Counted from the first letter of the stretch, positions 33,783 to 53,494 are shown. The stretch is 64,000 bases of DNA from Myxococcales bacterium (GCA_037441385.1 JBBISH010000014.1:410-64409); one strand, 5' to 3'. A program made the numbers and translations. Notes: generated by a model not told the origin, from the letters alone.

Positions 33783-33810
33783 TGACATAACACAAGGTTG
33801 ACGCTTGTCG
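33783..33810 (+). promoter_or_regulatory. Instance 2 (degenerate) of the 23-bp motif: TGACAtaACACAAGGtTGaCgCT-TGTCG, in a very AT-rich patch (TAATATATTC) ending 24 nt before the CHAT-gene ATG
   Basis: The spacing CACAAGG-N8-TGTC is shared with the other instances. Confidence 0.4.
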
Positions 33811-33833
33811 CGCGCCGGCGCACGCTTGGCGAC

Positions 33834-36800
33834 ATGAGCGCGCGCCTGGGGCTGATTTGGGCTGGTATCGCGGTCGCGCTGGCCGAGCCAGCCGTCGCGG
33901 CGCCGATGCGCGGCATGGTCACCTGCAATGGCCAGCCGGCCTACCACGCGATGGTGCAAGGTTTTGCCGATGCCGACGCGACGGCGCCGCTGGGCGAGGC
34001 CTTCACGGACGCCAAAGGGCAGTTCAGCCTGACGCTCAAGCCGGGTGCAACCGTGTTGCGTGCGCGCCGCAGTGTGCGCGACGACACCGGTGAGCCGCGC
34101 CGCCTGCAGAGCCTGGCCGTGCCCATCGGCAGCAAGACGCCGGTGGTGGCGCTGGTCGAGCGCGAGGTGCGCAACCGCGACGTGCCGGCGACTCCAGGCG
34201 ATCTGCAATGGTGCACGCGGGCGCGGCCGGTCGCGGAGCAGAGTCAAATCGAAGGCGTGGTGGCCAGGCTCGCTGGCATGGCGAGCGACGGCTGGGCTGG
34301 CGAAGTCGAAGGCAACGCCGCGATGCTGAAGCGCTACGATGCGGAGCCGGTGGGCCACGTCTTGGACGAGCGGCTCAAGGCGGCCGAACTGCGCCACGAT
34401 CTGGACGAACTGACGCGCATGGCGGCGCTCACGACGGTGGTGGGGCTGGTCATCGACGAACCAGAGCTGCAGGCGGCTGGCCAGGCTTGGCAGGCCATCG
34501 TCGACTTGTACCGCGGCAAACAGGCAGACGCGCTGCAGAAATTCTGGACGGTGCTGGTGCTGCAGCAAAAGGCAGTCGATCGCGAGACCCGGCCGGGCTG
34601 GCGCAAGGGTCGGCTGGCAACCTTGGCCCTGTTCTACGAATTCGCCGGGAACCTCGCGGGCGCAATCCACGATGGGGCCACGGTGGGGCTCTTCGGCGAG
34701 GCCGCCAAGTTCTACGAAGAGGTGGATCAGCCGCGGGACGCCGCGAAATTGCACCAACAATTGGGCTTCACTGCCAGCTTGGCGGGGGACGCGGCCAAAG
34801 CGGTCCAGTCCTACGCCGCGGCGCTGCGGGTCCTGGGCGACCTGCCCGAGCCTCTTCTGCGGGCGCGAATCCAAGGCCGCTGGGCGCAATTGGCAAAAGG
34901 CGACGAGCAGTTGCGCTTGCTGCGCGCGGCCGAGATCGAGCTGGCCAAGGCCCGACCGGGGCTGGAGTCGGCGGGAATTCAAATCGACCTGGGCAAAGCG
35001 TGGAGCGGGCGCGACGACTACCAAACGGCGCTGGTCTTGCTCGACGCAGCTGTCAAGACTTTAGACGGGCTGCCGGCAAGTCCGCTGCGGCGCGTGCAGC
35101 AGTGGTCGGCGCTGGGCGCCAGCGGCCGCGGCTACGTGCATTTCAACTTGCGGCATTTGCCCCAAGCGGCGGCGGATTTGCGGCGGGCCATCCCGTTGCA
35201 GCCCGACTCGCTGCCGCCCCAGGATTGCGCCGCCGAGCAGCAGATGTTGGGCTACGTGCTCGCCGAGCAGGGCCAGCAGCCTGATGCGCGCGCCGCCTTT
35301 GAACTGGGCATCACGCTGGCGCAAAAGGGGACCGCCGAGCGCGATCGCGACCGCGAGCTGCTCTTGCGCGAACAGGTGGCCTGGACGTGGCTGGACAGCG
35401 AGCCGCCAGAACCGGCCAAGGCCCTGCAAGTACTGGACGAGGCGATTCAAAAGGCCAACCGCCAGGGACTGACCGCCCGCGAGGGGCGCTTGTGCGAGAC
35501 GGCCGCCCACGCCGCCAGCCCCGAGGCAACCGCGCCCGCCGCGCAGCGCAAGCGCACGCTGACCTACCTGGAGCGCGCCGAGTCCTGCTACGACCAGACC
35601 AAGGACGCCGAGGGGTTGGCGCGGGTGCGCCGCCACTTGGCACAAGAGCGCCGCCTGATGGCCTTTGCCGAGCAGCAGAGCGGCAGGCGCGCCGATGCCG
35701 AGACCTCGCTGCGTGCGGCCCTGGCTGAGTTCGAGCGCAGCGGTGCCCGCGCGGATGCACAAGAAGCGGCGGACCAACTGGCGCTTTTGCTCTACGAACA
35801 GCGGCGGTGGCTGGAGGCGGCCGCCCTGTGGCAAAAGCACGCGGACTGGCTGGCGACCCCGGAGGCCGAGCAAGCGGCAGCCGATACCGTGGCGAACCTG
35901 CCGCGGCCATCGGCCGAGACCAAGCGCAACCTGACCCCCGGTGCCCGCCGCGCAGTGACGCTGAGCCTGCTGGCCAGTTGCTACACGGCGGCCGGCGAAG
36001 CCGACCAAGCGCTGGCCGTACGCCAGCAAGAGGCCGGGCTACGCAGCCAACAGGGTGACGTGCCCGGCGCGAGCGGTGCTTGGCAGCAGCTGGCGCTGGA
36101 TGCGGCCGTGGCGGGTCGTCGGCCGCTGTTCGACAAGGCGCTGCGTTTCCTGGTGGATCACGCCAGCGACGCCTCGAGCAAAGCGATGGTGGCGGCGCTC
36201 CGCATCCTGCCCGACGTTCTGGGCAGCGACCTGGAGGCAGCGCGCCGGGCCAAGGACGAACTGGCCAACGAACTGGCGGCCTTGTCGGTGGGCGCGGCGG
36301 ATCTGCCCGAGCGCCAAGGTCTGGTGCAAGGTTGGGCCATGCTGGGTTCGCTGCAGGCGCGCCTGGGCGAGCCGGGGCCGGGGCTGGCGTCGCTGCAGAA
36401 GGCGGCCGACTGGTCCGACGCGGCCGGCAAGGCGGCCATGCTCAGCAAGATCGGCCACCTGTGTCGCATGCTGGGGCGCTTGCAGGAAGCCCTGGACGCC
36501 CAGCAAAAGGTGCTGGAGCTGGCCGACCAAGCCGCGATGTATGTCAAGCCTTCGTACTTGCTGACCACGCTGGCCGACGTGTTCGAGGTGTACCAGGCCC
36601 TCGGCAACCGCGACGGTGCCCAGACCGTGCTCAGGCGCGCCCTAGCGGTGGCGCAAGAGGTCGAGGCGCAACCGCGCCAGCAGGCCGACGATCGGAAGAT
36701 TCTTGCCGACTTCCAGGCGATGCTCGCGCTGCGGTCAGTCGTGGCTGGTCACCCCGAGCAGGGGCTGGAGCTGGCCGACCGCGCGCTCGCCGTGTACCCG

Positions 36801-38825
36801 CGGCAGTTCCACGACGAAAACACGGCGACCGCGGCGATGGCGCGAGCGTTGGCCCGCAACCTGGCTTTCTTGAAGGCGTCGACCGCCGCGCTGCGCCAAG
36901 CTACGGCCAACCCGAAGTCGCCTGAATTCGCCAAGGTCGTGGCCGACGTGGAGCGCGGGCAGCGCGAGCACGCCGCGGAATTGCAGTCGGCCATGGAGGC
37001 GGCGCTGGCAGAGCTCGCGGTCACTCCTCTGGCCTTGGGTGCGAGCGCCCTGCAGGGCGTAGCGGGCAGCGACAAGGCCAAGCACAGCGAGGTGCAAAAG
37101 ATTCTTGATCTCGCCCACCAGCGGGCCCTGGCCGGCGGCCGGGTCAGCGACCTGTCGACCCTGTCGTGGCTCGCTGGGCGCAGCGCGGAGGCCATCGGCG
37201 ACCGCCAGGGCGCCATCGTCGCCTACCGGCGCGCCATCGAAGAAGAAGAAGTGGTGCGGACTTCGTTGGCGTCCGACATCCACAAGGCCGCGCTGGGCGA
37301 GAGCCGTGACCAGGTCTACGCCAGCTTGGAGCGCCTGTACGCCCAAGAGGGCCAGGCAGCGGAGGCGCTGGAGGTGAGCGAGCAGCGGCGGGCACGGGCC
37401 CTGCTCGACGTGTTGGCGACCGGACAATTGCGGGGCAAATTGCGCAACAACGCGCCGTCGCGCGAGCTGCAGCAATTGGCCGAGCGGATGCAGGCGCTGG
37501 CGGCCCAGGACCAAGCCTTGGATCTGCAGCTGGGCAGCGGCCCGGTCGCGCGGCTGGACGCCGCCTCGGGCAAGCGCCAGTTGGTCGATACGGCCCGGCC
37601 GCAGCTGCGTGTGCGCGTGGCGGGGCGCGAGGCGGCCGCCGAGGCCCTGTGGCGGCAACTGGCCGAAGCGCGCCGACGCGCCGCGGGTTCATCGGCCGAG
37701 CTGACCTCGCTGGTGACGGCGCCCGCGGTCCAGGTCGACGAACTGCGCAGCATGGCCCGGCAGCGCGGCGCGCATCTGCTCGAGTGGTCCGTGCACGACG
37801 ACACGCTGTGGATCTACGTGGTCAGCCCGGCTGGTCGGGTCGACGGGCGACAAGTCTCGGTCACTGCAAAGGATCTTGAGACCAAGGTGCGGGCGCTCCG
37901 CGGTGCACTGGGCGCAGGCGTGGATCGCGACCTGGGGCGCGGCGGCGAGGCCTTGGGGGCTCCTGAGCCGTCTGGCGGCGACGCGACGGCACTGCTGGCC
38001 GACCTGCACCGCACGCTGATCGCGCCCGTCGCAGACCTGCTCCCCCTGGATGGCAAGACGCCGGTGATCGTGGCGCCCCACCGCTCGCTGCTGCTGCTGC
38101 CGCTGGTCGCGTTGACCGACGCCAAGGGCCAGCCCTGGGGTGCCAGCACGTCGCTAGCGGTGGTGCCGTCGCTGGGTGTGTTGCGCTACACGCAGGCCAA
38201 GCACACCGGGGCGGCCAAGGGCGGCGCGCTGGTCGTTGGCAACCCGCAAATGCCCGTGTGGCAAGGCCAGCCCCTGCCGCCCCTGGCGGGCGCAGAGCGC
38301 GAAGCGGCCGAGGTGGCGCGCACACTGGCTGGCCCAGGAATCGAGTTGCTGACTGGCGCCAAGGCGACCGAGACCAAGGTGCGCAAGTCCATGCAGGGCA
38401 AGCGCTTCCTGCACCTGGCCACCCACGGTGTGGCGCGCGATGACCAGCCGGGCGAGAGCTTTGTGGCCCTGGCCAAAGACGCTGGCGCCGACGGGCTCTT
38501 GACGGTGGGCGAAGTGCTGGATCTGCAATTGCAGGCCGACTTGGTCGTGCTGTCGGCCTGCCAGACCGGGCTGGGTAAAGTGAGTGGCGACGGCGTATTG
38601 GGCCTGGGGCGCGCCTTCCTCTACGCCGGCACGCCGCGCGTGGTCGTGAGCCTGTGGTCCGTGCCCGACGAGCCCACCGCGCTGCTGATGGCCACCTTCT
38701 ACGCCGGGCTCCGTGCCGGTCAGGCCCCGGCCGATGCCCTGCGCGCCGCCCAGTCCACCACGCGCGCCAAGTTCCCAGACCCGCGCGCCTGGGCCGCCTT
38801 CGCGATGGTCGGCGAGCCCCGCTGA
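33834..38825 (+). CDS. Secreted carboxypeptidase-regulatory-like domain + TPR repeats + C-terminal CHAT (caspase-like) protease domain protein
   Basis: The signal is MSARLGLIWAGIAVALAEPAVAA. A CarbopepD_reg-like segment reads GMVTCNGQPA...FSLTLKPG. The long TPR region is followed by the CHAT His/Cys dyad HLATHG...LSACQTG. Confidence 0.75.
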   Translation: MSARLGLIWAGIAVALAEPAVAAPMRGMVTCNGQPAYHAMVQGFADADATAPLGEAFTDAKGQFSLTLKPGATVLRARRSVRDDTGEPRRLQSLAVPIGSKTPVVALVEREVRNRDVPATPGDLQWCTRARPVAEQSQIEGVVARLAGMASDGWAGEVEGNAAMLKRYDAEPVGHVLDERLKAAELRHDLDELTRMAALTTVVGLVIDEPELQAAGQAWQAIVDLYRGKQADALQKFWTVLVLQQKAVDRETRPGWRKGRLATLALFYEFAGNLAGAIHDGATVGLFGEAAKFYEEVDQPRDAAKLHQQLGFTASLAGDAAKAVQSYAAALRVLGDLPEPLLRARIQGRWAQLAKGDEQLRLLRAAEIELAKARPGLESAGIQIDLGKAWSGRDDYQTALVLLDAAVKTLDGLPASPLRRVQQWSALGASGRGYVHFNLRHLPQAAADLRRAIPLQPDSLPPQDCAAEQQMLGYVLAEQGQQPDARAAFELGITLAQKGTAERDRDRELLLREQVAWTWLDSEPPEPAKALQVLDEAIQKANRQGLTAREGRLCETAAHAASPEATAPAAQRKRTLTYLERAESCYDQTKDAEGLARVRRHLAQERRLMAFAEQQSGRRADAETSLRAALAEFERSGARADAQEAADQLALLLYEQRRWLEAAALWQKHADWLATPEAEQAAADTVANLPRPSAETKRNLTPGARRAVTLSLLASCYTAAGEADQALAVRQQEAGLRSQQGDVPGASGAWQQLALDAAVAGRRPLFDKALRFLVDHASDASSKAMVAALRILPDVLGSDLEAARRAKDELANELAALSVGAADLPERQGLVQGWAMLGSLQARLGEPGPGLASLQKAADWSDAAGKAAMLSKIGHLCRMLGRLQEALDAQQKVLELADQAAMYVKPSYLLTTLADVFEVYQALGNRDGAQTVLRRALAVAQEVEAQPRQQADDRKILADFQAMLALRSVVAGHPEQGLELADRALAVYPRQFHDENTATAAMARALARNLAFLKASTAALRQATANPKSPEFAKVVADVERGQREHAAELQSAMEAALAELAVTPLALGASALQGVAGSDKAKHSEVQKILDLAHQRALAGGRVSDLSTLSWLAGRSAEAIGDRQGAIVAYRRAIEEEEVVRTSLASDIHKAALGESRDQVYASLERLYAQEGQAAEALEVSEQRRARALLDVLATGQLRGKLRNNAPSRELQQLAERMQALAAQDQALDLQLGSGPVARLDAASGKRQLVDTARPQLRVRVAGREAAAEALWRQLAEARRRAAGSSAELTSLVTAPAVQVDELRSMARQRGAHLLEWSVHDDTLWIYVVSPAGRVDGRQVSVTAKDLETKVRALRGALGAGVDRDLGRGGEALGAPEPSGGDATALLADLHRTLIAPVADLLPLDGKTPVIVAPHRSLLLLPLVALTDAKGQPWGASTSLAVVPSLGVLRYTQAKHTGAAKGGALVVGNPQMPVWQGQPLPPLAGAEREAAEVARTLAGPGIELLTGAKATETKVRKSMQGKRFLHLATHGVARDDQPGESFVALAKDAGADGLLTVGEVLDLQLQADLVVLSACQTGLGKVSGDGVLGLGRAFLYAGTPRVVVSLWSVPDEPTALLMATFYAGLRAGQAPADALRAAQSTTRAKFPDPRAWAAFAMVGEPR

Positions 38826-38917: not shown

Positions 38918-40768
38918 CTACGGGGCTTCTTCCACCCACAGCGTGGCGTGTGCGGTCTGGCGGCCGTCCGAGGCGTACTGGCCCACGTCTTCCAGGATCA
39001 GGTGGTTCCACCACACCGTGAAGGTGTGCGCTCCGGCCGGGACGTTGGTGGCGATGCACGAGATGGTGTCCGCGCGCACCTCGTCGGTGTTGCCGTAGTA
39101 CTCCGAGCCGCAGCCCCAGGGCGTGGGGATGACCTTGTCGTCCATGCGGACTTCGATGCCGCCCCAACCCCAGCTGCTGTGGGTCTCTAGCGCGCCGGTC
39201 ATGACCTGAATCTTTAGCACCGAGGCGGCCTGCTGCTTGGTCAGGGTCGCCTTCAAGTTGGTGTCCAACTGAGCCCAACCGCCGCCGGCGTTGCCGGTGT
39301 GGGGGCCGGTCACGGTGGCCGTGGCATAGTTGAGCTTCTGCGGGATGGAAACGCCATTTACGGTGCCGTCGACGAGGAGGTCGCCCTTGACCTGCACCTT
39401 CTTGTTCGACAGGGTCTGGATGTTGATCGACCAGTTGAATTTGCCGTCGAACCCGCCCGAGCCGCCGCCGGCAAGCAGGTCCTTGACCGTCACCGACCAC
39501 GCACCGGCGATGTTCTTGCCCACCCAATCCTTGTTGATATCGCCCGAGACGATCGCCATGTCGCTGTTGAAGTTCGCCGTCAGCACCGTGCCGGTCTTGG
39601 AGCCGTCGTACAGCACGTAGGGCGACGGCATGCCGGGACCGTACAGTTCGATGCGCACCTTGGCGACGTTGCTGTTGTTTACCGTCATCGAGATCCAAAC
39701 CTTCTGCGCCAGGCCGATGTCCGGGAAGGACAGGGTGTCGGTCACGCCGGCGGTCAGGCCGTCTTTGATCGCGACATCGGTCGTGCCCGCCTTGCTATCG
39801 ACAAACTGGTTGAAGATCAGGCCATTACTGACCTCGTCGATGCCATCAGCCGGCATATCTTTCTCGCTGAGAATGCCGCACACCAGGCTGCCATCCGCCG
39901 CCAGCCCCTTGACGACCAGCCCGGTGCCGCAGCTTTTGCCCACCTGAGCCAGCACGGGCGCGTCCACCAAGTCGGCGTATTTCCCGGTCGATGCCACCTT
40001 GGCCAACTGCGGCTTGTCGGCCAGATCGTTGTAGCTGCCGGTACCGGCCACCGGCGCCAGCGACGCGGCCTTGACGTAGTCCGACAGGTCACTCTTGGAC
40101 GCCAACCCAACCAAATCCGCGGCTTTCGCATAGGCGGCCAGGTCGGCACTCTTGGCATAGGCGCCCAGGTCCGCCGCCTTGGCATACACACCCAAATCCG
40201 CGGACTTGGCATAGACGCTCAGGTCCGCCGATTTGGCATAGGGGCTCAGGTCTGCGGTCTTGGCATAGGCCGCCAGGTCGGCAGACTTGGCATAGGCCGC
40301 CAGATCCGAAGTCTTGGCAAAGGGTTGCAGCACGCCACCTTCGAGCATCGCCGCGGTGATGCAGCCCGAGCACTCCAGCCCTTCGGCCACCACGGCGCGC
40401 TGCGCGTACAACACCGACGCCAACGGCTGCCGCGGCAGCTCGGGATCCGAACCAATCTGCACGCCGATCCAGGCCTTGCTCAAGCTCAGGCTCGCGGGTA
40501 CGAGTGGAGTCTTCGTGCCCAAGTTCCAAAGGAACAAGCCGCCTTGCACGTCGACGCTGACGGGCCCTTCGCTCCAGACCGCCGAACCACCGGCCTCCGC
40601 CGCATAGATGGCAAAGGTCACGTTGTAGCTGCCGTCCGAGACGGTCCCCCCGGCCTGCGACGTCAACCGGCCCTGGGTGATGGTGGTGGGCGGCACAGCG
40701 GCCTGGGCGGTCGCCGCGCCACACAGGGCGAGCAGACTGAACAGCAAAGTCGATAGGCGCAGATTCAT
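38918..40768 (-). CDS. Paralog of the 13911-16127 modular tail-fibre-like secreted protein: same N-domain, 8 YAKxxDLxx repeats, P-domain-like module, different (non-FReD) beta-rich C-terminal domain
   Basis: The signal is MNLRLSTLLFSLLALCGAATAQA. The N-domain is about 60% identical to the paralog, including the shared LECSGCI motif. The C-terminal ~200 aa are unrelated to FReD. Confidence 0.7.
   Translation of the reverse strand: MNLRLSTLLFSLLALCGAATAQAAVPPTTITQGRLTSQAGGTVSDGSYNVTFAIYAAEAGGSAVWSEGPVSVDVQGGLFLWNLGTKTPLVPASLSLSKAWIGVQIGSDPELPRQPLASVLYAQRAVVAEGLECSGCITAAMLEGGVLQPFAKTSDLAAYAKSADLAAYAKTADLSPYAKSADLSVYAKSADLGVYAKAADLGAYAKSADLAAYAKAADLVGLASKSDLSDYVKAASLAPVAGTGSYNDLADKPQLAKVASTGKYADLVDAPVLAQVGKSCGTGLVVKGLAADGSLVCGILSEKDMPADGIDEVSNGLIFNQFVDSKAGTTDVAIKDGLTAGVTDTLSFPDIGLAQKVWISMTVNNSNVAKVRIELYGPGMPSPYVLYDGSKTGTVLTANFNSDMAIVSGDINKDWVGKNIAGAWSVTVKDLLAGGGSGGFDGKFNWSINIQTLSNKKVQVKGDLLVDGTVNGVSIPQKLNYATATVTGPHTGNAGGGWAQLDTNLKATLTKQQAASVLKIQVMTGALETHSSWGWGGIEVRMDDKVIPTPWGCGSEYYGNTDEVRADTISCIATNVPAGAHTFTVWWNHLILEDVGQYASDGRQTAHATLWVEEAP
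40033..40321 (-). repeat. 27-bp coding tandem repeats (8 YAKxADLxx units plus degenerate units)
   Basis: The encoded stretch runs FAKTSDLAA YAKSADLAA YAKTADLSP YAKSADLSV YAKSADLGV YAKAADLGA YAKSADLAA YAKAADLVG and onward. Confidence 0.7.
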
Positions 40769-40994
40769 GGTGGGCTCCCGGCGGGGACGAAAGGGCACGC
40801 ACATCCAAAGGACGATGCAGGCTGCGGAACGGTTGGACAGACCCGTCGCGGGCCGCCCCGCCGACCCCGCGCCGCACGCAAATAGGGTACGTCTGGCGCC
40901 AGAGGTGGTCAAACCCCATGAAACCACAACATTACGTTTACCTGACAAGTTTGCCACAGCTCTGTAGCTACGCGAGACGCCGCGAGGGCGATGA

Positions 40995-41047: not shown

Positions 41048-41140
41048 CGTACTTTTTGCTGTGCGAGCTCTTTTTGGCTGTGCGAGCTCTTCTTGGCTGT
41101 GCGAGCTCTTCTTGGCTGTGCGAGCTCTTTTTGGCTGTGC
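41048..41140. repeat. 19-bp tandem repeat GGCTGTGCGAGCTCTTYTT x ~4.5 (each unit has a GAGCTC palindrome) in the 3' UTR of the tail-tube gene, ~280-370 bp upstream of the paralog gene
   Basis: Direct reading gives four near-identical units followed by a degenerate unit. Confidence 0.7.
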
Positions 41141-41231
41141 GTGCTTGTCAGCTTGTGGCTGTTGCCTCTTGAGCTACGGCGAGCCTTCGACCCGCGCGTC
41201 GTGCCCCGTCTGGATCACAGCCGCGTCAAGA

Positions 41232-41663
41232 TCAACCGCGCTCCAGCTTCTCAACGGCCAGCTCGAGCTCTTCGACGTTGACGTCGGTGCCCTTGCCGTC
41301 CAGGGTGAAGCCCTTCCACTTGGTCGGCCAGCCCTCGAAGAAGTTGTAGCGCATGATCTCCGAGCCGTCGTCGGCGCAGAGGATGACCGAGCCCGACTTG
41401 CGCTGCACCTTGCCCTCGACGACGGCCTTGCGCCATTCCCAGAGCTCAGTGTTGTTGATGTAGCCGCGCTTGAAGGTGATGTTGCTGTACTTGGTGCGGC
41501 CCGGGCGCTTACGCAGCACCATATCGTCGCCGTCCTGGTACTCGATGATCTCGGTCTCGCTGTCCAGGCCTTCCACGTTGCGGAAAGCACCCTGGGTGAC
41601 GCCTTCGATCTCGATCTTGAAGTTGAAGTTACCGATGTGGTCGAATGCACGACGGTTAGGCAT
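41232..41663 (-). CDS. Phage tail tube protein of the T4 gp19 / eCIS Afp1-Pvc1 type (PF06841-like), stand-alone
   Basis: The sequence FNFKIEIEGV...FRNVEGLDSETEIIEYQDGDD...KRPGRTKYSNITFKRGY...ELWEW matches the conserved phage-tail-region-protein signature. No sheath or baseplate genes lie nearby. Confidence 0.7.
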   Translation of the reverse strand: MPNRRAFDHIGNFNFKIEIEGVTQGAFRNVEGLDSETEIIEYQDGDDMVLRKRPGRTKYSNITFKRGYINNTELWEWRKAVVEGKVQRKSGSVILCADDGSEIMRYNFFEGWPTKWKGFTLDGKGTDVNVEELELAVEKLERG

Positions 41664-42061
41664 GTCACTTCTCCGGCCCCCTTCGAGGGCCTGGGCGGTT
41701 GCGCCAGCTCAGAACGGCTTCTGGTCCGGCATCTTGTGTTTCCACCCTAGTTCGCCGCGCGGCGCGTGCCAAACTCCACAAGACGCTTTGGAAGGTAGCC
41801 CCTCCGCCGGGCCCCCGCAAGTGTCAATTGCGGCAGCCCCGCGAAATCGGCCACAGGGTGGGACATGCAGACCCCGATGAGGTCAAATCCTCCGGGGGTA
41901 CGGGGGTCTACAGGGTCGGTTCGCGCGCGAGGCTGGCCCAATTCACGCCTGATCGGCCGCGATCGCGCCGACGAAGAATCGCGGCCTGGGCCGCATAATC
42001 CGTTGACCTGCTTACGCAAATAAGCGAAGCCGGTGAACGAAGCCGGTGAGCGAATCCGCCT

Positions 42062-43018
42062 TCAGAATCCTTCGGGCAGTCCGCCTGGCGCGGCCGGGTC
42101 GCTTGGTTCGGCGGTCGACGTGCCGGTCGCAGGCCGTTCAGCGGGCGCGGCAGGCCGCAATTCGGGCTGATCTTGCAGGGGATCGCGCCAGCGCGGCCGT
42201 TCGGTGGCATAGAACGCCGCGCCCTTGCTGCGCCCCAGCGACCGCACGTAGTGCACCAAAGCCCAACGATCCGCAACCAACGGAATGGACTGATCATACG
42301 ACGGCATGGGCGAGCCATCCAGGCCGGTGACGAAGGTGCGGTAGACGTCGAGCGGGCGCATGCCGCCCTTGTAGACGCCGTAGGTAAAGTCAAAGACGTG
42401 ACTGGGGGTGCCGTCGCTGTTTTTCGCGGTCGTTGCCGCCAGACCGTCGCCGCGCCCGTCAGCGCCGTGGCACTCGCCGCACTTGAGCTGGGTGTAGAGC
42501 TGGCGACCGCGCTCGATACTAGCTGGCGTTTCAGCGACTTCGGTAACATCAGCTGGCACGAGCAGGTCGTCGACCTGGCGCGGCTCGGCGGCAAAACGCG
42601 GCGACAGCGTCTCTAGGAACAGGACTAGCGAAAGGAGCTGCCGGTCGGTCAGCTGCTCTTGCCAGCCCGGCATCGCGCTGCCCGGCAGGCCCAGGGCCAG
42701 GCTGCGGAGCAAATCGGCGCGCAGCGGGAGGGCGCCGCTGGTGGTGGAGCGAAAGCGGTACTCGCCGCGGGTGAGGTCGCGCGGCCGCGGGAAAAGGTGC
42801 TCTGCCACTGGGGATTTGCCGTCTCCCCTGGGCCCGTGGCAGCCGCTGCACAGGGCGCTGAACAATTGCCGGCCCTCTGCCGGGGTGGCCGGCGGTTCGG
42901 CAGCGCTTTCTGCTGGCGCAGGGCTGGGTTGCACGCCCGCGCCGCCACAGGCCCCCAGCGCGATGGCGAGCAGGGCGGAGGCGGTGCAGGCCGCGCGAAG
43001 TTGGCTAAAGGAAGCCAT
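42062..43018 (-). CDS. Dihaem c-type cytochrome lipoprotein (cytochrome c4/Cyc1-like)
   Basis: The signal is MASFSQLRAACTASALLAIALGAC. It has two CXXCH motifs, CSGCHGPRG and CGECHGADG. Its start overlaps the upstream gene end by 14 nt. Confidence 0.7.
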   Translation of the reverse strand: MASFSQLRAACTASALLAIALGACGGAGVQPSPAPAESAAEPPATPAEGRQLFSALCSGCHGPRGDGKSPVAEHLFPRPRDLTRGEYRFRSTTSGALPLRADLLRSLALGLPGSAMPGWQEQLTDRQLLSLVLFLETLSPRFAAEPRQVDDLLVPADVTEVAETPASIERGRQLYTQLKCGECHGADGRGDGLAATTAKNSDGTPSHVFDFTYGVYKGGMRPLDVYRTFVTGLDGSPMPSYDQSIPLVADRWALVHYVRSLGRSKGAAFYATERPRWRDPLQDQPELRPAAPAERPATGTSTAEPSDPAAPGGLPEGF

Positions 43019-44126
43019 GGAGTTGCACCAGCAGTTCGTCGGCGTTGCCCGCCGGCCGTTGGGGGATGTCGCGGTTCTTCCGGTACTCCAAGCGAATTTC
43101 GGAGAACTGCAGCGGGAACCAGCCCAGACCGACCACAAAGCGGTCGCGCTCGTTGTTGGCGATCTGCCGCGAAGGGTCAAAGGCTTCGAACCGGCCACGC
43201 AAGTGCAGGCCGCGCCAGAGCTCGAAATCGCCTTCGGTAAAGAGCGAATACTGGTCGTAGATCTCGGGATTGCCGATGCCGCGAATCCAGTCGATCGAGC
43301 CGAGCAGCGTAAGCCGCGCCAGCCGCATCCCACCGTGAAGACCGGCGGTCACGGTTTGGAAGGGGAAGTCGCGGACCGATGTGTCATTCCACGCGGCCGA
43401 GGCGTAGAGGCGCCACCACGAGTCGAATACCCCAACCGTGGCAGTGAGTTGCTTGGCCAAGTTGCCGTCCGCGCCGCCCAAGCTGCCGTTGCTCAGCGAC
43501 AGCGCTGCCGACCAGTGCTTGCCGGTGGCGCCGACCTCGATGCCCAGGTCTTGGTTGGCGTAGTTGAAGCCGGTCTGCTGGCGCATGAACGCGGTGTCGT
43601 CCCAAATCCGCAGGCCGTACGGCAACATGAAGCGCCCGGCCTTGAGGTAGAGCCCGCCCGGCAGCGCGCCGTACAGCAAGAAGGCCTCGCGGGCCGAGGC
43701 GCCTTCGGGGGCGACGACCTCGTCGACGTACACCGAGAGCGCGTCGGGCACGACGTCGGCGCGGAGGTAGAGGTTGCCCTCGCTGATGTCGAAGGAATTC
43801 GAGGCTGGGGTGGAGTACTGCTTGCCCTGGATGGCCGTATGCGCGGGCAGGATGGTTCGGTGATCCAGGCGGAGATTGGCGCCAAAGTGAACCGTTGAGC
43901 CGAGTTGCGGGTCAGCGGCACCGACACTGCGCCAAGTGGGCAAGTGGGTCTGGGCCCAGGCGACGCCAAAGGCCGTGCGCATGCCGCCGCCGGTGCGGTT
44001 GACGTGGCAGTCGCTGCACGGCAGCCCTTCGCGCAAGGCAAAGCGCGGCTCGGCCTGCGCGCCAGTAGACCACAGGGTCACCGCGGCACATACGCACAGG
44101 GCGAGAGCGGCGAGGGCGCGAGCCAT
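43005..44126 (-). CDS. Cyc2-like fused monohaem cytochrome / predicted outer-membrane beta-barrel protein
   Basis: A signal peptide is followed by a single CXXCH (PCSDCH) about 12 residues into the mature protein. Some 320 aa follow with the alternating aromatic/polar pattern typical of a porin. It is TGATG-coupled to the upstream PSCyt gene. Confidence 0.5.
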   Translation of the reverse strand: MARALAALALCVCAAVTLWSTGAQAEPRFALREGLPCSDCHVNRTGGGMRTAFGVAWAQTHLPTWRSVGAADPQLGSTVHFGANLRLDHRTILPAHTAIQGKQYSTPASNSFDISEGNLYLRADVVPDALSVYVDEVVAPEGASAREAFLLYGALPGGLYLKAGRFMLPYGLRIWDDTAFMRQQTGFNYANQDLGIEVGATGKHWSAALSLSNGSLGGADGNLAKQLTATVGVFDSWWRLYASAAWNDTSVRDFPFQTVTAGLHGGMRLARLTLLGSIDWIRGIGNPEIYDQYSLFTEGDFELWRGLHLRGRFEAFDPSRQIANNERDRFVVGLGWFPLQFSEIRLEYRKNRDIPQRPAGNADELLVQLHGFL

Positions 44127-44755
44127 CAGTTTTCGCCTCCAAGATCCGTCGGTTGCAGCATGTCGCCTCCGCCATCCTGCGTGTCCGGGCCGGGTTCGCT
44201 TGGGCCGGGTTCGCTTGGGCCGGGTTCGCTGGGCTCGCCGCCCGCATCGGGCAGGGGCACCGTGAGCACCTCGGCGTCGGCGGGCTCGTCCTTCCAGTCC
44301 GTGGTGGCGCCAGCCGAAATCCAGTGCCGCAGGGATGTGATCTGCGCGCTACTCAAGAAGGGCGGCCCAGTCCTGGGCATCCGCGAACCCACGCGCCGCG
44401 GATCGCTGCCGATCACCTTGGCCATCAGGTAGCTGTCCTCGGGCTTGCCTGGGGCCACCCGCAGCATCGCCGGCACCTCCGACGACGCCACACCGACCAG
44501 CATCTTGTACGCCGAAGCCGTGTCCAGCGCCAACCCCTTGGGCGCCGCGCCGCCGTGATGGCACGGCTGGGCGCAGGTGGGCTCCAGAATCTGCGATTGG
44601 ATCTCGGGCCACGTCTTGGGCCCGGTCGCGCCAGGCTCGGGCGGCGCCGGCACCCCCACGCCGTTGCCCACGCAGCCGGCCATCGCCCAGCCGAGCAGCC
44701 CTTGCATCGCCCAGCGCGAGCGCGACAATACAAGGAGCACCGAGGCCGCCGACAT
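44126..44755 (-). CDS. PSCyt1-type (planctomycete cytochrome c domain) lipoprotein with one CXXCH and C-terminal PSEPG repeats
   Basis: The PSCyt1 pattern is ...ILEPTCAQPCHHGG...GLALD...PGKPEDSYLMAKV...MP...ITSLRHWISAGA. The signal is MSAASVLL...WAMAGC; an alternative start at M17 (44707) is possible. Confidence 0.6.
   Translation of the reverse strand: MSAASVLLVLSRSRWAMQGLLGWAMAGCVGNGVGVPAPPEPGATGPKTWPEIQSQILEPTCAQPCHHGGAAPKGLALDTASAYKMLVGVASSEVPAMLRVAPGKPEDSYLMAKVIGSDPRRVGSRMPRTGPPFLSSAQITSLRHWISAGATTDWKDEPADAEVLTVPLPDAGGEPSEPGPSEPGPSEPGPDTQDGGGDMLQPTDLGGEN
44187..44240 (-). repeat. 18-bp x3 tandem repeat coding (PSEPG)3
   Basis: The plus-strand unit is gggccgggttcgcttg. Confidence 0.6.
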
Positions 44756-44772
44756 GAAGCACCCTTGTGTCA
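44751..44772 (-). promoter_or_regulatory. Instance 3 of the 23-bp motif (minus strand): TGACACAAGGGTGCTTCATGTC, overlapping both divergent start codons
   Basis: This is the reverse complement of gacatgaagcacccttgtgtca. The CATG at 44753-44756 supplies an ATG on each strand. Confidence 0.5.
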
Positions 44773-44966
44773 TCTTACTGATCTTAATGGCGATTGTGGC
44801 AACCAGCTGCGTTACCGTGCAGCCGTGGCAGCGGGGCACGCTGAGCGAGCCGGCGATGGAATTGAAGCCGCGGCTGGGTAGCGAATTCCACAACCACGTG
44901 CGGCAGGTGCGCGAAGCGGCCATCGGCGGCGAGGGCGGCGCGGGCGGCGGCTGCGGCTGCAACTGA
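44754..44966 (+). CDS. DUF4266-family small lipoprotein (71 aa, C-terminal GGCGCN)
   Basis: The sequence is MKHPCVILLILMAIVATSC...VQPWQRGTLSEPAMELKP...GGEGGAGGGCGCN. The 5' codons are AT-rich. It is convergent on the DUF3570 gene. Confidence 0.6.
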   Translation: MKHPCVILLILMAIVATSCVTVQPWQRGTLSEPAMELKPRLGSEFHNHVRQVREAAIGGEGGAGGGCGCN

Positions 44967-44998
44967 TCGACGCGCGGCGGCATCCGGCTCCTGAGGGT

Positions 44999-46108
44999 CT
45001 AAAGATCAACGGACAAGGCAGCTTGGAGGATGCCGGTCCAGGTGTCGGCCATGGGCACAAAGGCGCCGTTGACCAGCGTGCGGAAGTCGTCGTAGCGTTC
45101 CCAGCCCGCCATGGCCTGCAGCACCGCCTCCCAGTTTTGCCAGCGAGTGCGCAAGGTTAGCTGAGTGCTGTCGGCAATCTGACCAACCAGGCGGCGGTCG
45201 CGCGTCATGTACTCGCGCTCTACGGAATACATCGCCCGCTCGAAGCTGGCCCGCGACTGCCAGTAGAAGCGATTGCTCAGCTCGACTTCGACCGCATAGT
45301 GGAACTTGAAGGTGGCGCCCAGCTCGGCCGTGTTGGCGCGGACGCCCCAGGTGTCGACGTAGCCGCGGTAGAAAGCGCGCAAGAACCAACGGTTGCTCAA
45401 GGCCTGGCGGCCCTCGATCGTGACGCCGTGGCGGGTGCGCTGATCGGGATGCTGCTCGGCGACCCACTGCGCGTGGTCTTTGGTCCACAGGTCGACCGTC
45501 TTGGGCACGAGGGGCACCATCCGATAGGGACTGGACTGAAAGCCGTTGATTTGCTGCAGAGTATACGCCAGCGACAGGACCGCAGTGCGGCTGATCAGCT
45601 GGGTGAGGGTGGCGTCGAGCCGGTGACTGGTGCGGTCGTGCCACAGCGCTTCGGGCTCGCGGACGCTGCCCAGCCGGTCCAGGCCCACACCATAGGTCAA
45701 TGATGTAGCCAGGTTGCGCGACAGCCACTCGCGAGTGGCGCCCAGGCTGACGGTGTGACTGCGGGTGTCGTTTTCGGTGCTGTAGGTATAGCCCGCGTGG
45801 CCTGCGAGCCCTTGCTCGTCGTAGACGGCCTGCAACCCCGCTTCTTTGCGGACGTCGTGAAAGCGCGCGCTGGCCCCCGAGATCATGTCCACCGAAGCGG
45901 CCGAAATGAAATCCGTTTTCAGATCGGCTTGGAGCGAGGCGCCGCTCTTGACGCGCTGCCGGGCTTGGACCCACGGCGAGATCACCTGCAGGCCATCGTT
46001 GTTGCGATACACGGCCGTGCCGGTCGCTGCGTGCGCCCCCAGTTCGTCGGCCCGGACCGGCGCCGCCAGGCCAAACAGCGCGCACAGCACGGCCCAATGC
46101 CACGCCAC
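44999..46108 (-). CDS. DUF3570-like predicted outer-membrane beta-barrel protein (GTG start)
   Basis: The signal is (M)AWHWAVLCALFGLAAPVRA. The sequence has alternating Y/W/F beta-strand periodicity. The other minus frame is Arg/Pro junk. Confidence 0.55.
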   Translation of the reverse strand: MAWHWAVLCALFGLAAPVRADELGAHAATGTAVYRNNDGLQVISPWVQARQRVKSGASLQADLKTDFISAASVDMISGASARFHDVRKEAGLQAVYDEQGLAGHAGYTYSTENDTRSHTVSLGATREWLSRNLATSLTYGVGLDRLGSVREPEALWHDRTSHRLDATLTQLISRTAVLSLAYTLQQINGFQSSPYRMVPLVPKTVDLWTKDHAQWVAEQHPDQRTRHGVTIEGRQALSNRWFLRAFYRGYVDTWGVRANTAELGATFKFHYAVEVELSNRFYWQSRASFERAMYSVEREYMTRDRRLVGQIADSTQLTLRTRWQNWEAVLQAMAGWERYDDFRTLVNGAFVPMADTWTGILQAALSVDL

Positions 46109-46140
46109 GCTGGCCCAATGGAGCCCCAGGCGCGGCGCGA

Positions 46141-46670
46141 TCACGGCAGCACCCAGTCGACCCAGTCGGCGAGGAGCTTGTAGTCGGGGTCGTCGCGGCT
46201 GGCGAAGATCTCGAAGCCGCTGCCGTGACGGATGCCACCTTGGTCCAGGGGCAGGCACTTGAGCAAGAGTTTGCAGTTATTCAACGAGGTTACGCCGCGC
46301 AAGCGGTTGCGGATGGCGTCGTAGTTCCACGTGAGCTCGGCCTCGGTCAGGCGCGTCTCGTCCAACGGCGTCTCCGCAAACTCGGGAGGCGCGCGAAGGA
46401 AATCCACGGCGTACAGCTTGAGGCTGCGATGCGGGTCGCCGTGGCAGGCCGACGAAGCACAGCGCCGCCCCAAGACCGGTTGCACGAAGGTGACAAACTG
46501 GCCGTAGTTGGGTTTGGGCGGTACGTAGCGCGGATTGTCTATGGACTCGCACCCGGCGACGGCGAGCAAAACAACACTGATTACAAGAACTTTGGCCAAA
46601 GTGCGCCGCAGGAGCCGCCATGGTCTGGTCCGCCGCGGGGGGCTTGAAAGGGGTTGCAGGTGGCCATTCA
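46141..46670 (-). CDS. PSCyt1-like lipoprotein with degenerate haem motif (CX4CH)
   Basis: The signal is MNGHL...VLLAVAGC. The pattern FVQPVLGRRCASSACHGDP...LLLKCL...DDPDYKLLADW parallels the 44126-44755 protein. Confidence 0.5.
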
Positions 46671-46838
46671 TCTCGGCACGACGCGGCTCTCTTGCGGTTG
46701 CGCGCCCCCCATGCCGTCTGGACACCGACCAGGGCCGCGGGAGGTGGCGATTTGGCGTTTGCGCGACCCCTGCGGGCGGTGGTATCAAGCAAGTGGAGAT
46801 CGGAAGAGCACGCACACCGCCTGATTCGATGCTATGCA

Positions 46839-49139
46839 ATGCAGCCGAGCCGCGCAATCAACCGTGTCTGTTCCGTCGCATGGCTGCTGTTGGCGGCCGT
46901 GTGCGGTAGCGGGTGCGCCGAGCCCGAGGCGACGATCGCCGCCCCCAAGGTAGAGAGCTGCAGCGCGGCGGCCTGCCACGCCGATGTGGAGCAAATCCAC
47001 TACGGTGGCCAGATGTTGCGCTGCGTCGATTGCCACGGCGGCAACCCCGAGGCGCCGACCAAGGCGGGGGCGCACGTGACGGTGGACTACTCGTTCAACC
47101 CGACCACGCCGGGCAAGCACTTCTTGGACGACCCGCCGCTGGTGGACCTTGCCGCGGTCCCGACCGCAGTGATGCAGTTCTTGAATCCGGCCGATTACCG
47201 CGTAATTCGCAATACTTGCGGAAGCTCGACCTTGGCCGGCGGCAACTGTCACAGCATCATCACCAGCAACAGCTTGCTGCTGAATCGGGCGACGTTGGCG
47301 GGCCAGCTTGCCGGGGGTGGCTTCATCGCTGGCGTCCAGGGCAAGGCGGCCCACTACGGGGTGGTGCCAACCCGCGACACGCTGACACCCACCAAACTGC
47401 CGCCGCTCACTGCGGCTGACTTCCCGGCGCTTCCCGCGGACGTGCCGGCGAGCGTGACGCCGACGACGGCCCAGGCGTTCTATCCTGTTTACGAGCAGTT
47501 GTGCACCGAGTGCCACCTCAGCCGCGAGGGCGCCAAGATGCCGGGGCGCTACTACTCAGCGGGGTGCAACGGCTGTCACATGACCACCGCGGACGATGGC
47601 CGCACCGTGAGCAGCGATCCCACGCAAAATCGCGAGGAGATCGGTCACCCCATGCGGCACCGGTTCACGAATCTGGTGCCGGACCGGCAATGCGCGCACT
47701 GCCATATTTCGCACCTGGGTCGGGCGCTGTTGGCCCAAGGTGTCCGCGAGCGGAGCGAACCAGACGGCGACAAGCTGGCCGGCGGCCCCAACCGTGGCGC
47801 GGCGGACCCGCCCAACGCGGTGCCGTGGGCCAAAGAAAACTACATAAAATACAAGGGGATGTATTGGCAGTACGGCAAACCGTACCCGTATTTCATCGCG
47901 GACGAGAACGGCACCAACGACACGGACGAGACGCCGCCCGACATCCACACCGCCAAGGGCCTGGCCTGCATCGACTGCCACAACATCGTGGAGGAGCACG
48001 GCACGGGCAAGATGGCCTACCGGATGGACCAAGAGCTGGACGTGCGCTGCCAGAGCTGCCACGGGCGGCCGGGCGAAAAGGCGAAGCTGATGTCGGATTC
48101 GGCTGTCACGTTTGACAAGGCGGGGACCGCGGCGGGCGGCTTTGGCGGAAACCCGCTGATGATTCATACGCTTGCCGATGGAACTGTGTACGAAACGGGC
48201 AAGATCGACGGCAAAGACCACCCCGTGACGCAGATCAACGCGCGCATCGATCCGGCTGGCAAGATCTACAACCCACGGACACGAATGGGTTGTCAGCTGC
48301 ACGCCGGCTCGGCGGAGGCGCGGGCAGCGGTGCGCAAGGCGGTGAACGACCTTTCGGCCAAGGACCCCGCGGCGGTGGCAAAGGAGTTCCCAGGGCTACC
48401 GGAGGGATTCAAGTTCAAGGAGTTGGGCGGTGAAGAGGACGGCCGGGTTGAGTGCTTTACCTGCCACAACAGCTGGACCTTGAACTGCTACGGCTGCCAC
48501 ATGGTCCGCGACGACCGCAAGAGCTACGTCAGCCGCATCGACGGCAAGAAGAAGCTAGGCGCGGTCGAGAGCTTTGGCCTCTCCGTCCTGCCCGACGCGC
48601 TGGCGATGGGCTTCAACGCGCGGGGGCGCATCTCGCCGCTGGTGGGGACGTCGATCTTCTTTACGCACATCGACAAGGGCGGCAACAAGGTCATCGACGC
48701 CCAGGCGCTGACGACCGGCGAGGGGCTGACCGGCGAGGGCAACGTCCACAACCCCGTGCACCACCACACGATTCAAAAGCTGCCGCGCGACTGCACCGGC
48801 TGTCACCCGGCCGCGACGGGCGACACGAGCCCGCAAAGTGCCAACGCCAAGGCGGTGTTGCGCGCCGTCGGCCTGGGCACAGGCGAGGCAACCTTTGTCG
48901 ACGGCAACGGCAAGACCCACTGGCTGGACCGGCTGCTTTGGGCCGACTACGACGGCGACGGCAAATGGGACGACCCCAAGACGCTGGGGCTGCCGCAGGC
49001 GCTGGCCGCGGTCGAGCGGGCGGTGGGCACGACGCACCTGCAGCTGCCCTCGTTCGTCGGCCTGCCCGACCCGGGGCCGCTGGACCTGGCGACGGTGCGG
49101 CGGGTCATCGACAACCGCGTGGTCAATCAGCGACCATAG
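46839..49139 (+). CDS. Multihaem c-type cytochrome lipoprotein (9 canonical CXXCH plus 2 non-canonical)
   Basis: The signal is MQPSRAINRVCSVAWLLLAAVCGSGC. The canonical motifs are CVDCH, CTECH, CNGCH, CAHCH, CIDCH, CQSCH, CFTCH, CYGCH and CTGCH. The two non-canonical sites are CSAAACH and C-X9-CH. Confidence 0.8.
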   Translation: MQPSRAINRVCSVAWLLLAAVCGSGCAEPEATIAAPKVESCSAAACHADVEQIHYGGQMLRCVDCHGGNPEAPTKAGAHVTVDYSFNPTTPGKHFLDDPPLVDLAAVPTAVMQFLNPADYRVIRNTCGSSTLAGGNCHSIITSNSLLLNRATLAGQLAGGGFIAGVQGKAAHYGVVPTRDTLTPTKLPPLTAADFPALPADVPASVTPTTAQAFYPVYEQLCTECHLSREGAKMPGRYYSAGCNGCHMTTADDGRTVSSDPTQNREEIGHPMRHRFTNLVPDRQCAHCHISHLGRALLAQGVRERSEPDGDKLAGGPNRGAADPPNAVPWAKENYIKYKGMYWQYGKPYPYFIADENGTNDTDETPPDIHTAKGLACIDCHNIVEEHGTGKMAYRMDQELDVRCQSCHGRPGEKAKLMSDSAVTFDKAGTAAGGFGGNPLMIHTLADGTVYETGKIDGKDHPVTQINARIDPAGKIYNPRTRMGCQLHAGSAEARAAVRKAVNDLSAKDPAAVAKEFPGLPEGFKFKELGGEEDGRVECFTCHNSWTLNCYGCHMVRDDRKSYVSRIDGKKKLGAVESFGLSVLPDALAMGFNARGRISPLVGTSIFFTHIDKGGNKVIDAQALTTGEGLTGEGNVHNPVHHHTIQKLPRDCTGCHPAATGDTSPQSANAKAVLRAVGLGTGEATFVDGNGKTHWLDRLLWADYDGDGKWDDPKTLGLPQALAAVERAVGTTHLQLPSFVGLPDPGPLDLATVRRVIDNRVVNQRP

Positions 49140-53413: not shown

Positions 53414-53494
53414 GTTGGCGGGTTGTCCATCGCGCGGCCAAAGTCGATCATGCTCGGGTTGGCAGGGGCAAAGCGTAGGTGGCAAGGGGTGGCG

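Follow-up and report, generated by a model that had tools for sequence, protein, structure and literature searches.

Does a myxobacterial-type genome hold a Cyc2-type iron oxidase, in which a monohaem cytochrome and a porin are fused in one protein, or a different system of similar design? The question is raised by two genes at positions 42062-44126 of a 64,000-nucleotide (nt) stretch of DNA from a Myxococcales bacterium (GCA_037441385.1 JBBISH010000014.1:410-64409), which as a whole is called the window here. The window is GC-rich and has Ser/Thr kinase and CHAT-TPR genes, and the closest homologue of the porin, at 91% identity, is from a 'Deltaproteobacteria bacterium' metagenome-assembled genome (MAG), all of which is in keeping with a genome of myxobacterial type. 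An initial annotation, made from the sequence alone, described the pair as cyc2/cyc1-like, with a fused cytochrome-porin followed by a dihaem cytochrome c in the order of the Acidithiobacillus rus operon, and suggested an undescribed conduit for Fe(II) oxidation or extracellular electron transfer. Our analysis indicates that three translationally coupled genes (44983-42062, minus strand), namely this pair and a small cytochrome gene directly upstream that lay outside the annotated coordinates, probably encode an outer-membrane electron conduit working on the Cyc2 principle, and that the porin is Cyc2-like in its putative working principle and not a member of Cyc2.

In genomes and metagenomes, iron-oxidising bacteria are sought mainly by way of Cyc2 as genetic marker, and this protein represents the simplest known outer-membrane electron route. 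Members of Cyc2 are recognised by a signal peptide, one CXXCH, an upstream AXPXFAR[Q/K][T/Y] motif, PXL four residues downstream, a 16-strand porin and a length of at least 365 amino acids (aa), and the published pipeline drops sequences without PXFAR[Q/K][T/Y] (PMC8406198), while the minimum Cyc2 length in FeGenie is 375 aa (PMC7005843). The haem site of Cyc2 has been proven (PMC8406198), and the proximal His is reported to be at mature position 16 in A. ferrooxidans Cyc2 (bioRxiv 10.1101/2021.03.22.436458).

Predicted haem attachment site and barrel of the porin

The fused monohaem cytochrome-porin gene (43005..44126, minus strand) was called as an open reading frame (ORF) of 373 aa, with GGAGG 10 nt ahead of its ATG. 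The N-terminus of the product is MARALAALALCVCAAVTLWSTGAQA|EPRFALREGLPCSDCH, where the bar marks the predicted signal-peptide cleavage. Residues 1-25 (MARALAALALCVCAAVTLWSTGAQA; 44052..44126, minus strand) have the n-h-c layout of a Sec-type signal peptide and end in AQA, and in an alignment of 40 homologues the conserved block of the family begins exactly at this site, with A25-E26-P27; sequence and family conservation together point to cleavage after AQA (AQA|EP). The motif CSDCH occupies residues 37-41 (nt 44004-44018), which are mature residues 12-16, and it therefore lies outside the cleaved signal region. It is part of the N-terminal haem-attachment segment AEPRFALREGLPCSDCHVNRTGGGMRTAFG (43965..44054, minus strand), recognised by its invariant residues and the frame shared with Cyc2.

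Judged by the alignment, the CXXCH haem site is under strong selection and is no chance match, because C37, C40 and H41 are invariant in the 40 homologues and exactly one CXXCH is found in 209 of the 211 family proteins with an intact, motif-bearing N-terminus (the other two have two). Haem would be attached at C37/C40 with H41 as the proximal ligand, and His370 (43017..43019, minus strand), a candidate on account of its conservation in the alignment, is possibly the second axial ligand. It is very improbable that the motif carries no haem and is a metal-binding or disulphide motif, or a chance match, in an ordinary porin. Such a reading draws on the fact that haem attachment is deduced from sequence and that the motif falls in a low-confidence region of the structural model, and it has to account for a motif that is invariant, together with its flanking residues, across hundreds of divergent sequences, that holds the only two cysteines of the mature protein (C37 and C40), that stands in a frame shared with the proven haem site of Cyc2 (PMC8406198), and whose gene is linked to other cytochrome genes.

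The AlphaFold2 model of the porin (pLDDT 83.8, pTM 0.80) has a beta-barrel over residues about 79-372, with 17 DSSP strand segments between residues 79 and 372, and the predicted fold is an OprP-like barrel of about 16 strands (barrel body aa 79-373, 43008..43892, minus strand). OprP was the best structural template, solute-specific and general porins being nearest, and OprP/OprO is also the template reported for Cyc2 (PMC8406198; bioRxiv 10.1101/2021.03.22.436458). The phosphate-selective porins OprP and OprO differ from the haem-porin in lacking the haem segment, their identity to it is 13%, and the porin has no Pfam Porin_O_P match. Its C-terminus is an aromatic/hydrophobic barrel signal. 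The signal peptide, the single N-terminal CXXCH and the porin body described in the initial annotation were thus borne out by the sequence, the alignment and the modelled barrel; its estimate of about 320 aa for the body was too large, as a barrel of about 295 aa follows a non-barrel N-terminal segment of about 50 aa. None of the three observations that it had named as evidence against itself (no predicted barrel, best hits to an unrelated periplasmic cytochrome family, CXXCH inside the signal region) was made.

The most conserved internal segment, as identified from the 40-homologue alignment and the model, is KAGRFMLPYGLRIWDDTAFMRQQTGFNYANQDLGIEVG (aa 162-199; 43530..43643, minus strand). 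Its consensus, KAGRxLLPYGLRxxDDxAFxRxxTGFNYxNQDLGVE, contains many further invariant residues, namely K162, G164, P169, G171, R182, G186, D193, G195, E197 and G199. Residues 168-191 were modelled with lower pLDDT as a long loop and a short helix between two strands, and the conserved segment may fold into the pore.

Comparison with Cyc2

A Cyc2 reference set of 90 complete genes was retrieved from a genome collection with the degenerate DNA pattern FAR[QK][TY]...CxxCH....PxL (sources were Gallionella, Sideroxydans, Mariprofundus including M. micogutta ET2, Chlorobium sp. N1, Nitrospira, Bacteroidales, Rhodocyclaceae and others), a retrieval that biases the set towards canonical motifs and the TTC Phe codon. 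With the first Cys counted as 0, A(-12), P(-10), F/L(-8), A(-7), G(-3), C0, C3 and H4 are common to Cyc2 and the haem-porin family, A(-12) being the last signal-peptide residue in both, and the spacing between signal peptide and haem motif is identical in 210 family and 90 Cyc2 sequences. In each family 11 mature residues precede the first Cys, which makes the proximal His mature residue 16.

The two families part at the positions that define Cyc2. R(-6), [QK](-5), [TY](-4), P(+9) and L(+11) are found in Cyc2 only, all at 100% as the retrieval pattern required, whereas [VLI](-6), R(-5), [ET](-4), N(+6), GGG(+9 to +11) and R(+13) are found in the haem-porin family only, all at 98-100%. In the window porin the upstream motif is AEPRFALRE, where A, P, F and A match the Cyc2 spacing and L-R-E replaces R-[QK]-[TY], in keeping with the family consensus A-E-P-x-[FLI]-A-[VLI]-R-[ET]; downstream it has CH-VNRT-GGG-M, and the P(+9)/L(+11) of Cyc2 occurs in 0% of the family and G-G-G in 98-100%. 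With 373 aa the protein is above the 365-aa limit (PMC8406198) and 2 aa below the FeGenie limit (PMC7005843), and the 375-aa minimum of FeGenie equals the median length of the haem-porin family; the median of Cyc2 is 425 aa.

A hidden Markov model (HMM) built from the 90 Cyc2 sequences returned 10-19 bits only; the window porin obtained 19.4 bits, 15 of which came from the signal peptide and haem segment. In hhalign, the mature family against mature Cyc2 reached 87.9% (40 sequences) and 90.7% (208 sequences) in local alignment and 96.0% and 97.4%, respectively, in global alignment, with 0.7-1.5% for the reversed Cyc2 control. Two Cyc2 subgroups matched each other at 98.7-99.4% (E 4e-16 to 6e-21), whereas the porin family matches Cyc2 through 17 residues only. 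Family members bearing a Cyc2-like T-G ahead of the haem site were tried as a bridge to Cyc2 and rejected: their hhalign value was 96-98%, but the post-haem part stayed at 8-12%, and the rise is not extra evidence because these members were selected on their N-terminus.

Considering these comparisons, the resemblance to Cyc2 is real and confined to the haem-attachment segment and the overall design, with barrels that share the fold alone. Like Cyc2 (A. ferrooxidans Cyc2, Mariprofundus Cyc2PV-1 and Leptospirillum Cyt572; clusters 1-3), the haem-porin has a Sec signal peptide, a single CXXCH, the frame A-x-P-x-F-A-x-x-x-G-x-x-C before the haem, no other Cys, and a predicted barrel of about 16 strands with OprP as best match; in the loci of both, a dihaem cytochrome c is often next and a blue-copper protein is present in some (the rus operon in the case of Cyc2), and presumably one working principle underlies both. 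Unlike Cyc2, it is without R[Q/K][T/Y] and PXL and has its own CH-[VI]-N-x-[TS]-G-G-G-x-R, a conserved internal loop KAGR..LPYGLR..DD.AF.R..TGF and a C-terminal His at position -3, there is no detectable sequence similarity past the first 17 residues, and the published Cyc2 criteria do not recover the family. We therefore regard the haem-porin as Cyc2-like in working principle and, because the two defining motifs and the ordinary sequence criteria fail, not as a Cyc2 member. As regards the Cyc2-type iron oxidase proposed initially, the architecture and the His at mature residue 16 stood and the membership did not. A common fused ancestor of the two families is plausible.

This makes it improbable that the protein is a plain Cyc2 orthologue (a cluster 1-3 Fe(II) oxidase) in an ordinary rus-type pair with a cyc1 orthologue, carried by a myxobacterial genome. 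The architecture, the haem-site spacing and the OprP template would all fit an orthologue (PMC8406198), as would a cytochrome-porin followed by a dihaem cytochrome c, the order of true cyc2 loci. The replacement of R[Q/K][T/Y] and PXL by [VLI]-R-[ET] and N-x-T-G-G-G, the low Cyc2 HMM scores and a match limited to 17 residues would not, and the dihaem partner described below points the same way.

The haem-porin family

Neither Pfam nor NCBIfam gave a match to the porin at E ≤ 0.1, and among PDB sequences there was no meaningful relative. Homologues of 355-400 aa numbered 244 in a word-indexed search; each is annotated 'hypothetical', and their named sources are MAGs labelled Deltaproteobacteria, Kofleriaceae, Myxococcales, Archangiaceae, Latescibacteria and Acidobacteriota. 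When 1.84 billion cluster representatives (clusters at 50% identity) were searched exhaustively with a profile, 2568 of them were recovered at E ≤ 1e-3, 1196 at E ≤ 1e-10 and 414 at E ≤ 1e-30. C37, C40, H41, N43, G46-48, R50 and H370 are invariant in the 40 aligned homologues, a His stands fourth from the C-terminus in 93% of the 211 members and is missing there in Cyc2, and the signature of the family is written as CH-[VI]-N-x-[TS]-G-G-G-x-R plus the C-terminal His.

The haem-porin family is thus large, nameless, spread over several phyla and without a Pfam or NCBIfam model, and the system is by no means confined to myxobacteria. In the literature on fused cytochrome-porins and on Cyc2 in Myxococcota, no description of this family was found. 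We tentatively propose, at somewhat less than even confidence, that it constitutes, alongside Cyc2 and distinct from it, another widespread family of fused cytochrome-porins, with its own signature and a portable three-gene module. The proposed family would number some 400 to 2500 clusters at the least (50% identity), from Myxococcota-type organisms, Latescibacteria, Acidobacteriota and metagenomes; its haem-pocket signature would be CHVN.TGGG.R with the internal LPYGLR..DD loop and the C-terminal His, and its module would unite the haem-porin with a Kustc0457-like dihaem cytochrome and, as third member, a FoxE/PSCyt1-like monohaem lipoprotein or a cupredoxin.

Some distant members (P0244, P0256, P0259 and P0252) have an extra element before the usual CH-VNP-GGG site. 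In P0244 this contains a second haem motif, ECTACH, in P0256 it contains CADACH, a C-X3-CH, and in P0259 it is a His-rich insert, DDGGDHHHHDGGG; the elements of these three proteins suggest two-haem or metal-binding variants of the haem-porin.

Cytochrome partners and conserved synteny

The gene for the dihaem class-I cytochrome c lipoprotein (318 aa; 42062..43018, minus strand) overlaps the porin gene by 14 nt at the porin stop codon; the start codon is the ATG at 43018 and not the GTG at 43333 with which the long ORF opens. The protein has the lipobox LGAC, the haem motifs CSGCH (nt 42836-42850) and CGECH (nt 42467-42481), each followed by an MP motif, and two stretches matching Pfam Cytochrom_C (1.2e-19), and in these respects the initial description of an overlapping dihaem lipoprotein was correct. 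Among the 18 PDB sequences matched at E ≤ 0.01, the best was 6h5l_B (E 4.7e-47, 163.8 bits; residues 41-260 to 5-219, covering both haem sites), followed by cytochromes of ACIII, bc1 and CcoP, and no A. ferrooxidans Cyc1 chain was among the 18. The entry 6H5L is a HAO-like structure from Kuenenia stuttgartiensis (bioRxiv 10.64898/2026.07.28.741245), and the complex has Kustc0457 as its dihaem subunit, which serves as dedicated redox partner and whose two haems are both 6-coordinate (PMC8042395); from these two papers and the depositors' chain name we infer that chain B is Kustc0457.

The dihaem protein is, on this sequence match, a homologue of Kustc0457 and not of the c4-type Cyc1, and, no A. 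ferrooxidans Cyc1 chain being among the PDB matches, the label 'cyc1-like' denotes an analogy of role and not homology. It aligns with Kustc0457, the partner of the HAO-like nitrite reductase Kustc0458, over the whole cytochrome part including both haem sites and MP motifs. It differs in that it is a lipoprotein, that its tail is long and Pro/Ala-rich, and that it is linked to a haem-porin of the outer membrane and not to an octahaem enzyme, in a non-anammox organism. With Cyc1/CYC41 (c4-type, rus operon) it shares two class-I haem c domains, a gene directly after that of the cytochrome-porin and probably the role of first periplasmic acceptor, with no detectable relation beyond the class-I cytochrome fold. 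Orthologues adjoin the porin gene in five related loci (L122, L124, L125, L126 and L129), and no HAO-like gene was seen beside the dihaem gene here or in eight related loci, where its neighbours are the haem-porin and the small carrier. One weak terminator-like site follows the dihaem gene (41980-41995), the number of such sites being below chance expectation, and a sigma-70 promoter scan found no promoter.

The third gene (44126..44983, minus strand), whose stop codon overlaps the porin ATG by 1 nt (TGATG), encodes a lipoprotein taken here as a small, putatively monohaem cytochrome, with the lipobox Cys at 44672-44674 and CAQPCH, a C-X3-CH, at 44558-44575. Invariant features of 28 homologues are C-X(2-4)-C-H, the motif R-M-P and, at the C-terminal end, W..GA. 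A c-cytochrome fold was predicted, the match to Pfam PSCyt1 (PF07635) was weak and below the cut-off, and Foldseek with the small cytochrome returned nothing significant. Scores against FoxE (the iron oxidase of Rhodobacter ferrooxidans SW2, 5MAB), Geobacter PccH (4RLR) and PSCyt1 were weak; FoxE has two haems, whereas the small protein would have one and its Cys spacing varies (C-X2-4-CH), and the resemblance to FoxE is a lead only.

Several features of this gene deserve description. Its ORF runs about 70 codons upstream of the lipoprotein signal peptide (44774-44983) from an ATG with a good AGGAG site; the extension is kept in L122 and absent from more distant homologues (170-199 aa), and translation probably begins at an internal codon. 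At 44187-44234 a 15-bp unit, present in 3.3 copies, encodes SEPGP three times in the C-terminal tail, where the 83%-identical homologue P0267 has one copy. In L128, two proteins of the small-cytochrome type follow the porin gene (1306-2205 and 2368-2799), one of them with a repeated N-terminal domain.

Judged by their overlaps of 1 nt and 14 nt, the small cytochrome, porin and dihaem genes form an operon. The trio is found together in relatives with 79%, 55%, 48% and 44% identity (L122, L124, the P0061 contig and L125, respectively). A distant branch (L126 and L129), whose porins match at E 1e-37 to 7e-39, still has the dihaem orthologue (E 7e-66 and 2e-54), and a cupredoxin with C-x2-H-x3-M takes the place of the small cytochrome. 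Among 80 metagenome loci, the small cytochrome gene lies directly upstream of the porin in 41 of the 60 that have enough upstream sequence. Where there was enough sequence on both sides (29 metagenome loci), the trio was present in 14, in two gene orders: small carrier - porin - dihaem in six, and dihaem - small carrier - porin in eight. Two further loci had the small carrier and the porin only, and 13 had the porin alone. A cytochrome-porin followed by a dihaem cytochrome is thus a real order, as proposed initially, and bona fide cyc2 genes in L014, L034, L083 and L106 also have a dihaem cytochrome c gene directly after them. That three families are kept together across changes of gene order and a cupredoxin swap is the signature of an electron-transfer chain.

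It is on this ground that we give little credence to a solute porin whose haem is not part of a conduit, serving instead as a redox- or gas-sensing gate or plug, or as a catalytic centre for small molecules (peroxide or a nitrogen oxide, for instance) in the pore: the recurrent linkage to two or three electron carriers, the shuffled orders and the cytochrome-to-cupredoxin swap follow an electron-transfer pattern, and no gene for an HAO-like or other catalytic N-oxide enzyme was found among the window ORFs scanned. Some observations do speak for such a porin. Solute-specific and general porins are the nearest to its barrel, an adjacent redox partner is missing from nearly half of the loci, and the haem could be 5-coordinate and reactive, its second axial ligand being just a candidate; in addition, a protein with an HZS_alpha domain is encoded nearby in L124, and the characterised relative of the dihaem partner serves a nitrite-reducing HAO-like enzyme (PMC8042395).

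Proposed electron conduit and direction of electron flow

An electron conduit remains the best reading of the conserved synteny, and to that extent the initial suggestion holds; its Fe(II) part stays an analogy. We have proposed a model for the conduit, in which the position of the haem, the direction of flow and the substrate are inferred. The 373-aa porin would be exported by Sec and its signal peptide removed, and one haem c would be attached at C37/C40, with H41 as proximal ligand, 12-16 residues into the mature chain. The rest of the protein, roughly 295 residues, would form an OprP-like outer-membrane barrel of about 16 strands, with the haem-bearing N-terminal segment in or at the pore mouth, and the only distance for electrons to cross would be the width of a single haem-loaded pore. 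At the periplasmic face, two lipoprotein cytochromes, the small FoxE/PSCyt1-like monohaem protein and the dihaem class-I cytochrome homologous to Kustc0457, would exchange electrons with the porin and pass them to the respiratory chain. The sorting rules for lipoproteins assign to the outer membrane those that have neither Lys nor Asp as residue +2; this applies to both cytochromes, which would be expected in that membrane. The purpose suggested here for the trio, electron transfer across the outer membrane, is that of the MtrAB/MtoAB/PioAB systems and the Geobacter PCC/Ext clusters, in which a barrel gene is likewise clustered with cytochrome genes. Unlike MtrAB or PCC, the haem-porin is not a separate large barrel enclosing a multihaem cytochrome.

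High potential is characteristic of class-I His/Met cytochromes and of blue-copper proteins, carriers that are typical of chains in which a donor is oxidised to feed an oxidase and not of metal reduction. The partners are of this type, His/Met class-I cytochromes here and a blue-copper protein in the distant branch, and inward flow, with oxidation of an external or pore-diffusible donor, is therefore the more likely direction by analogy. Fe(II) would be the leading candidate donor, again by analogy, and the same logic is seen in the rus operon with its Cyc2, rusticyanin, Cyc1 and aa3 oxidase (bioRxiv 10.1101/2021.03.22.436458).

Other genes around the trio bear on the direction. Upstream in the same operon lie a gene for a DUF3570 outer-membrane barrel (381 aa; 44999..46144, minus strand; Pfam DUF3570, 5.8e-25), kept in L122 and L124 and elsewhere outside the core trio, and a gene for a lipoprotein with CASSACH, a C-X4-CH (46141..46671, minus strand), which is the first gene of the minus-strand cluster and has orthologues in L122 and L124. 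Across a 168-bp gap, and divergent from this cluster, is a gene on the plus strand (46839..49139) for a 766-aa lipoprotein cytochrome of about 10-11 haems (nine CXXCH, one CX4CH and one long-spaced site), with a partial NCBIfam ExtM match (6.7e-37, below cut-off); it is also kept in L122 and L124. The CASSACH lipoprotein, the DUF3570 barrel and the multihaem lipoprotein form a possible second barrel-plus-cytochrome set beside the trio (L124 also has DUF4266), and they could make up a second conduit or an outward branch. The two small lipoproteins were considered as paralogues and this was rejected, the hhalign match covering just 21 columns at 63%.

A conduit of the same type might run outward, carrying respiratory electrons to extracellular Fe(III)/Mn(IV) minerals, humics or surface oxidants, maybe together with the DUF3570 barrel and the roughly 11-haem lipoprotein. 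Loci of the window type do encode this large multihaem lipoprotein, with its partial similarity to ExtM, and a second barrel, and in L126 the carriers are followed by a gene for a NapC/NirT-type 5-haem membrane protein. The NapC/NirT family usually feeds quinol electrons to periplasmic acceptors. In addition, A. ferrooxidans Cyc2 has been described as reversible (bioRxiv 10.1101/2021.03.22.436458). We nevertheless consider outward flow rather unlikely, as most trio loci (L125, L126, L129 and those from metagenomes) lack the DUF3570 and multihaem genes and the conserved partners, whether class-I His/Met cytochromes or a cupredoxin, are by general knowledge high-potential carriers.

An inward conduit on the Cyc2 principle has several observations to contend with. 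PXL, which is thought to stabilise the haem of Cyc2, is absent from the porin family; the Cyc2 HMM gives mature members without signal peptides just 10-18 bits; and the hhalign value drops to 1-22% once the first 17 residues are removed from both the family and Cyc2. With a similarity limited to 17 residues, convergence of the two families is possible. Model confidence is lowest in the haem segment, with pLDDT <50 at residues 22-33, and the haem attachment, localisation and activity of the family are predictions from sequence and model. About 45% of the assessable loci have a lone porin gene, which in L121, L123 and L127 stands among housekeeping genes (P0110 of L123 is named as Latescibacteria), and the partner genes are not obligatory neighbours of the porin. 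The large multihaem cytochrome encoded next door is of a type more typical of outward electron export, and no terminal oxidase, bc1 complex or quinol dehydrogenase was found among the Pfam-scanned ORFs of the window, a scan that did not cover every ORF.

Other genes in the window and in related loci

Beyond the cytochrome operon, a lone phage-tail-tube or contractile-injection-system tube gene (41232-41663, minus strand; Pfam Phage_T4_gp19, 1.4e-38) sits between the operon and a fibre-like gene, and a 19-bp unit is repeated five times (94% matches) in the intergenic DNA at 41052-41145 beside it. The fibre-like gene (38918-40957, minus strand) encodes a 679-aa secreted protein with 7.3 copies of a 27-bp tandem repeat (9 aa, 'AKSADLxxY') at 40128-40323 and a weak N-terminal match to the mosaic adhesive trimer fibre proteins of Bdellovibrio (E 0.007); L122 has at the same position a 637-aa gene without a Pfam match. 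There are two very large TPR-CHAT proteins, one of 1675 aa (33786-38825, plus strand) and one of more than 1024 aa that runs off the end of the window (60928-64000, plus strand). Compared with L122, the gene for the former was apparently inserted between a Ser/Thr kinase gene and the cytochrome cluster. Two fusions were also observed, a 1535-aa protein joining a BadF/BcrA-type ATPase to a DUF2229 CoA-enzyme activase (22254-26861, minus strand), and a DUF2064 domain fused to a radical SAM/SPASM protein (53414-55138, plus strand).

Among the related loci, the NapC/NirT-family protein of L126 (9163-11022) has 619 aa, five CXXCH and a very acidic, Asp/Glu-rich tail. In L124 the trio is followed by a gene (10712-13729) for a 1005-aa protein with a hydrazine-synthase-alpha middle domain (PF18582).

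Significance

The haem-porin family combines a Cyc2-type design with a different haem environment and a conserved set of periplasmic carriers. If its members exchange electrons with extracellular iron, surveys built on Cyc2 motifs or HMMs would miss a large share of the capable organisms, and some surveys may already count members of the family as 'Cyc2'. If redox-active, the haem-porin would offer a natural comparison for the tuning of a single haem in a porin, in a compact three-gene unit that can be directly expressed and tested. In that case it would also widen the range of suspected extracellular electron exchangers to, for example, predatory or heterotrophic myxobacteria-like lineages, Latescibacteria and Acidobacteriota.

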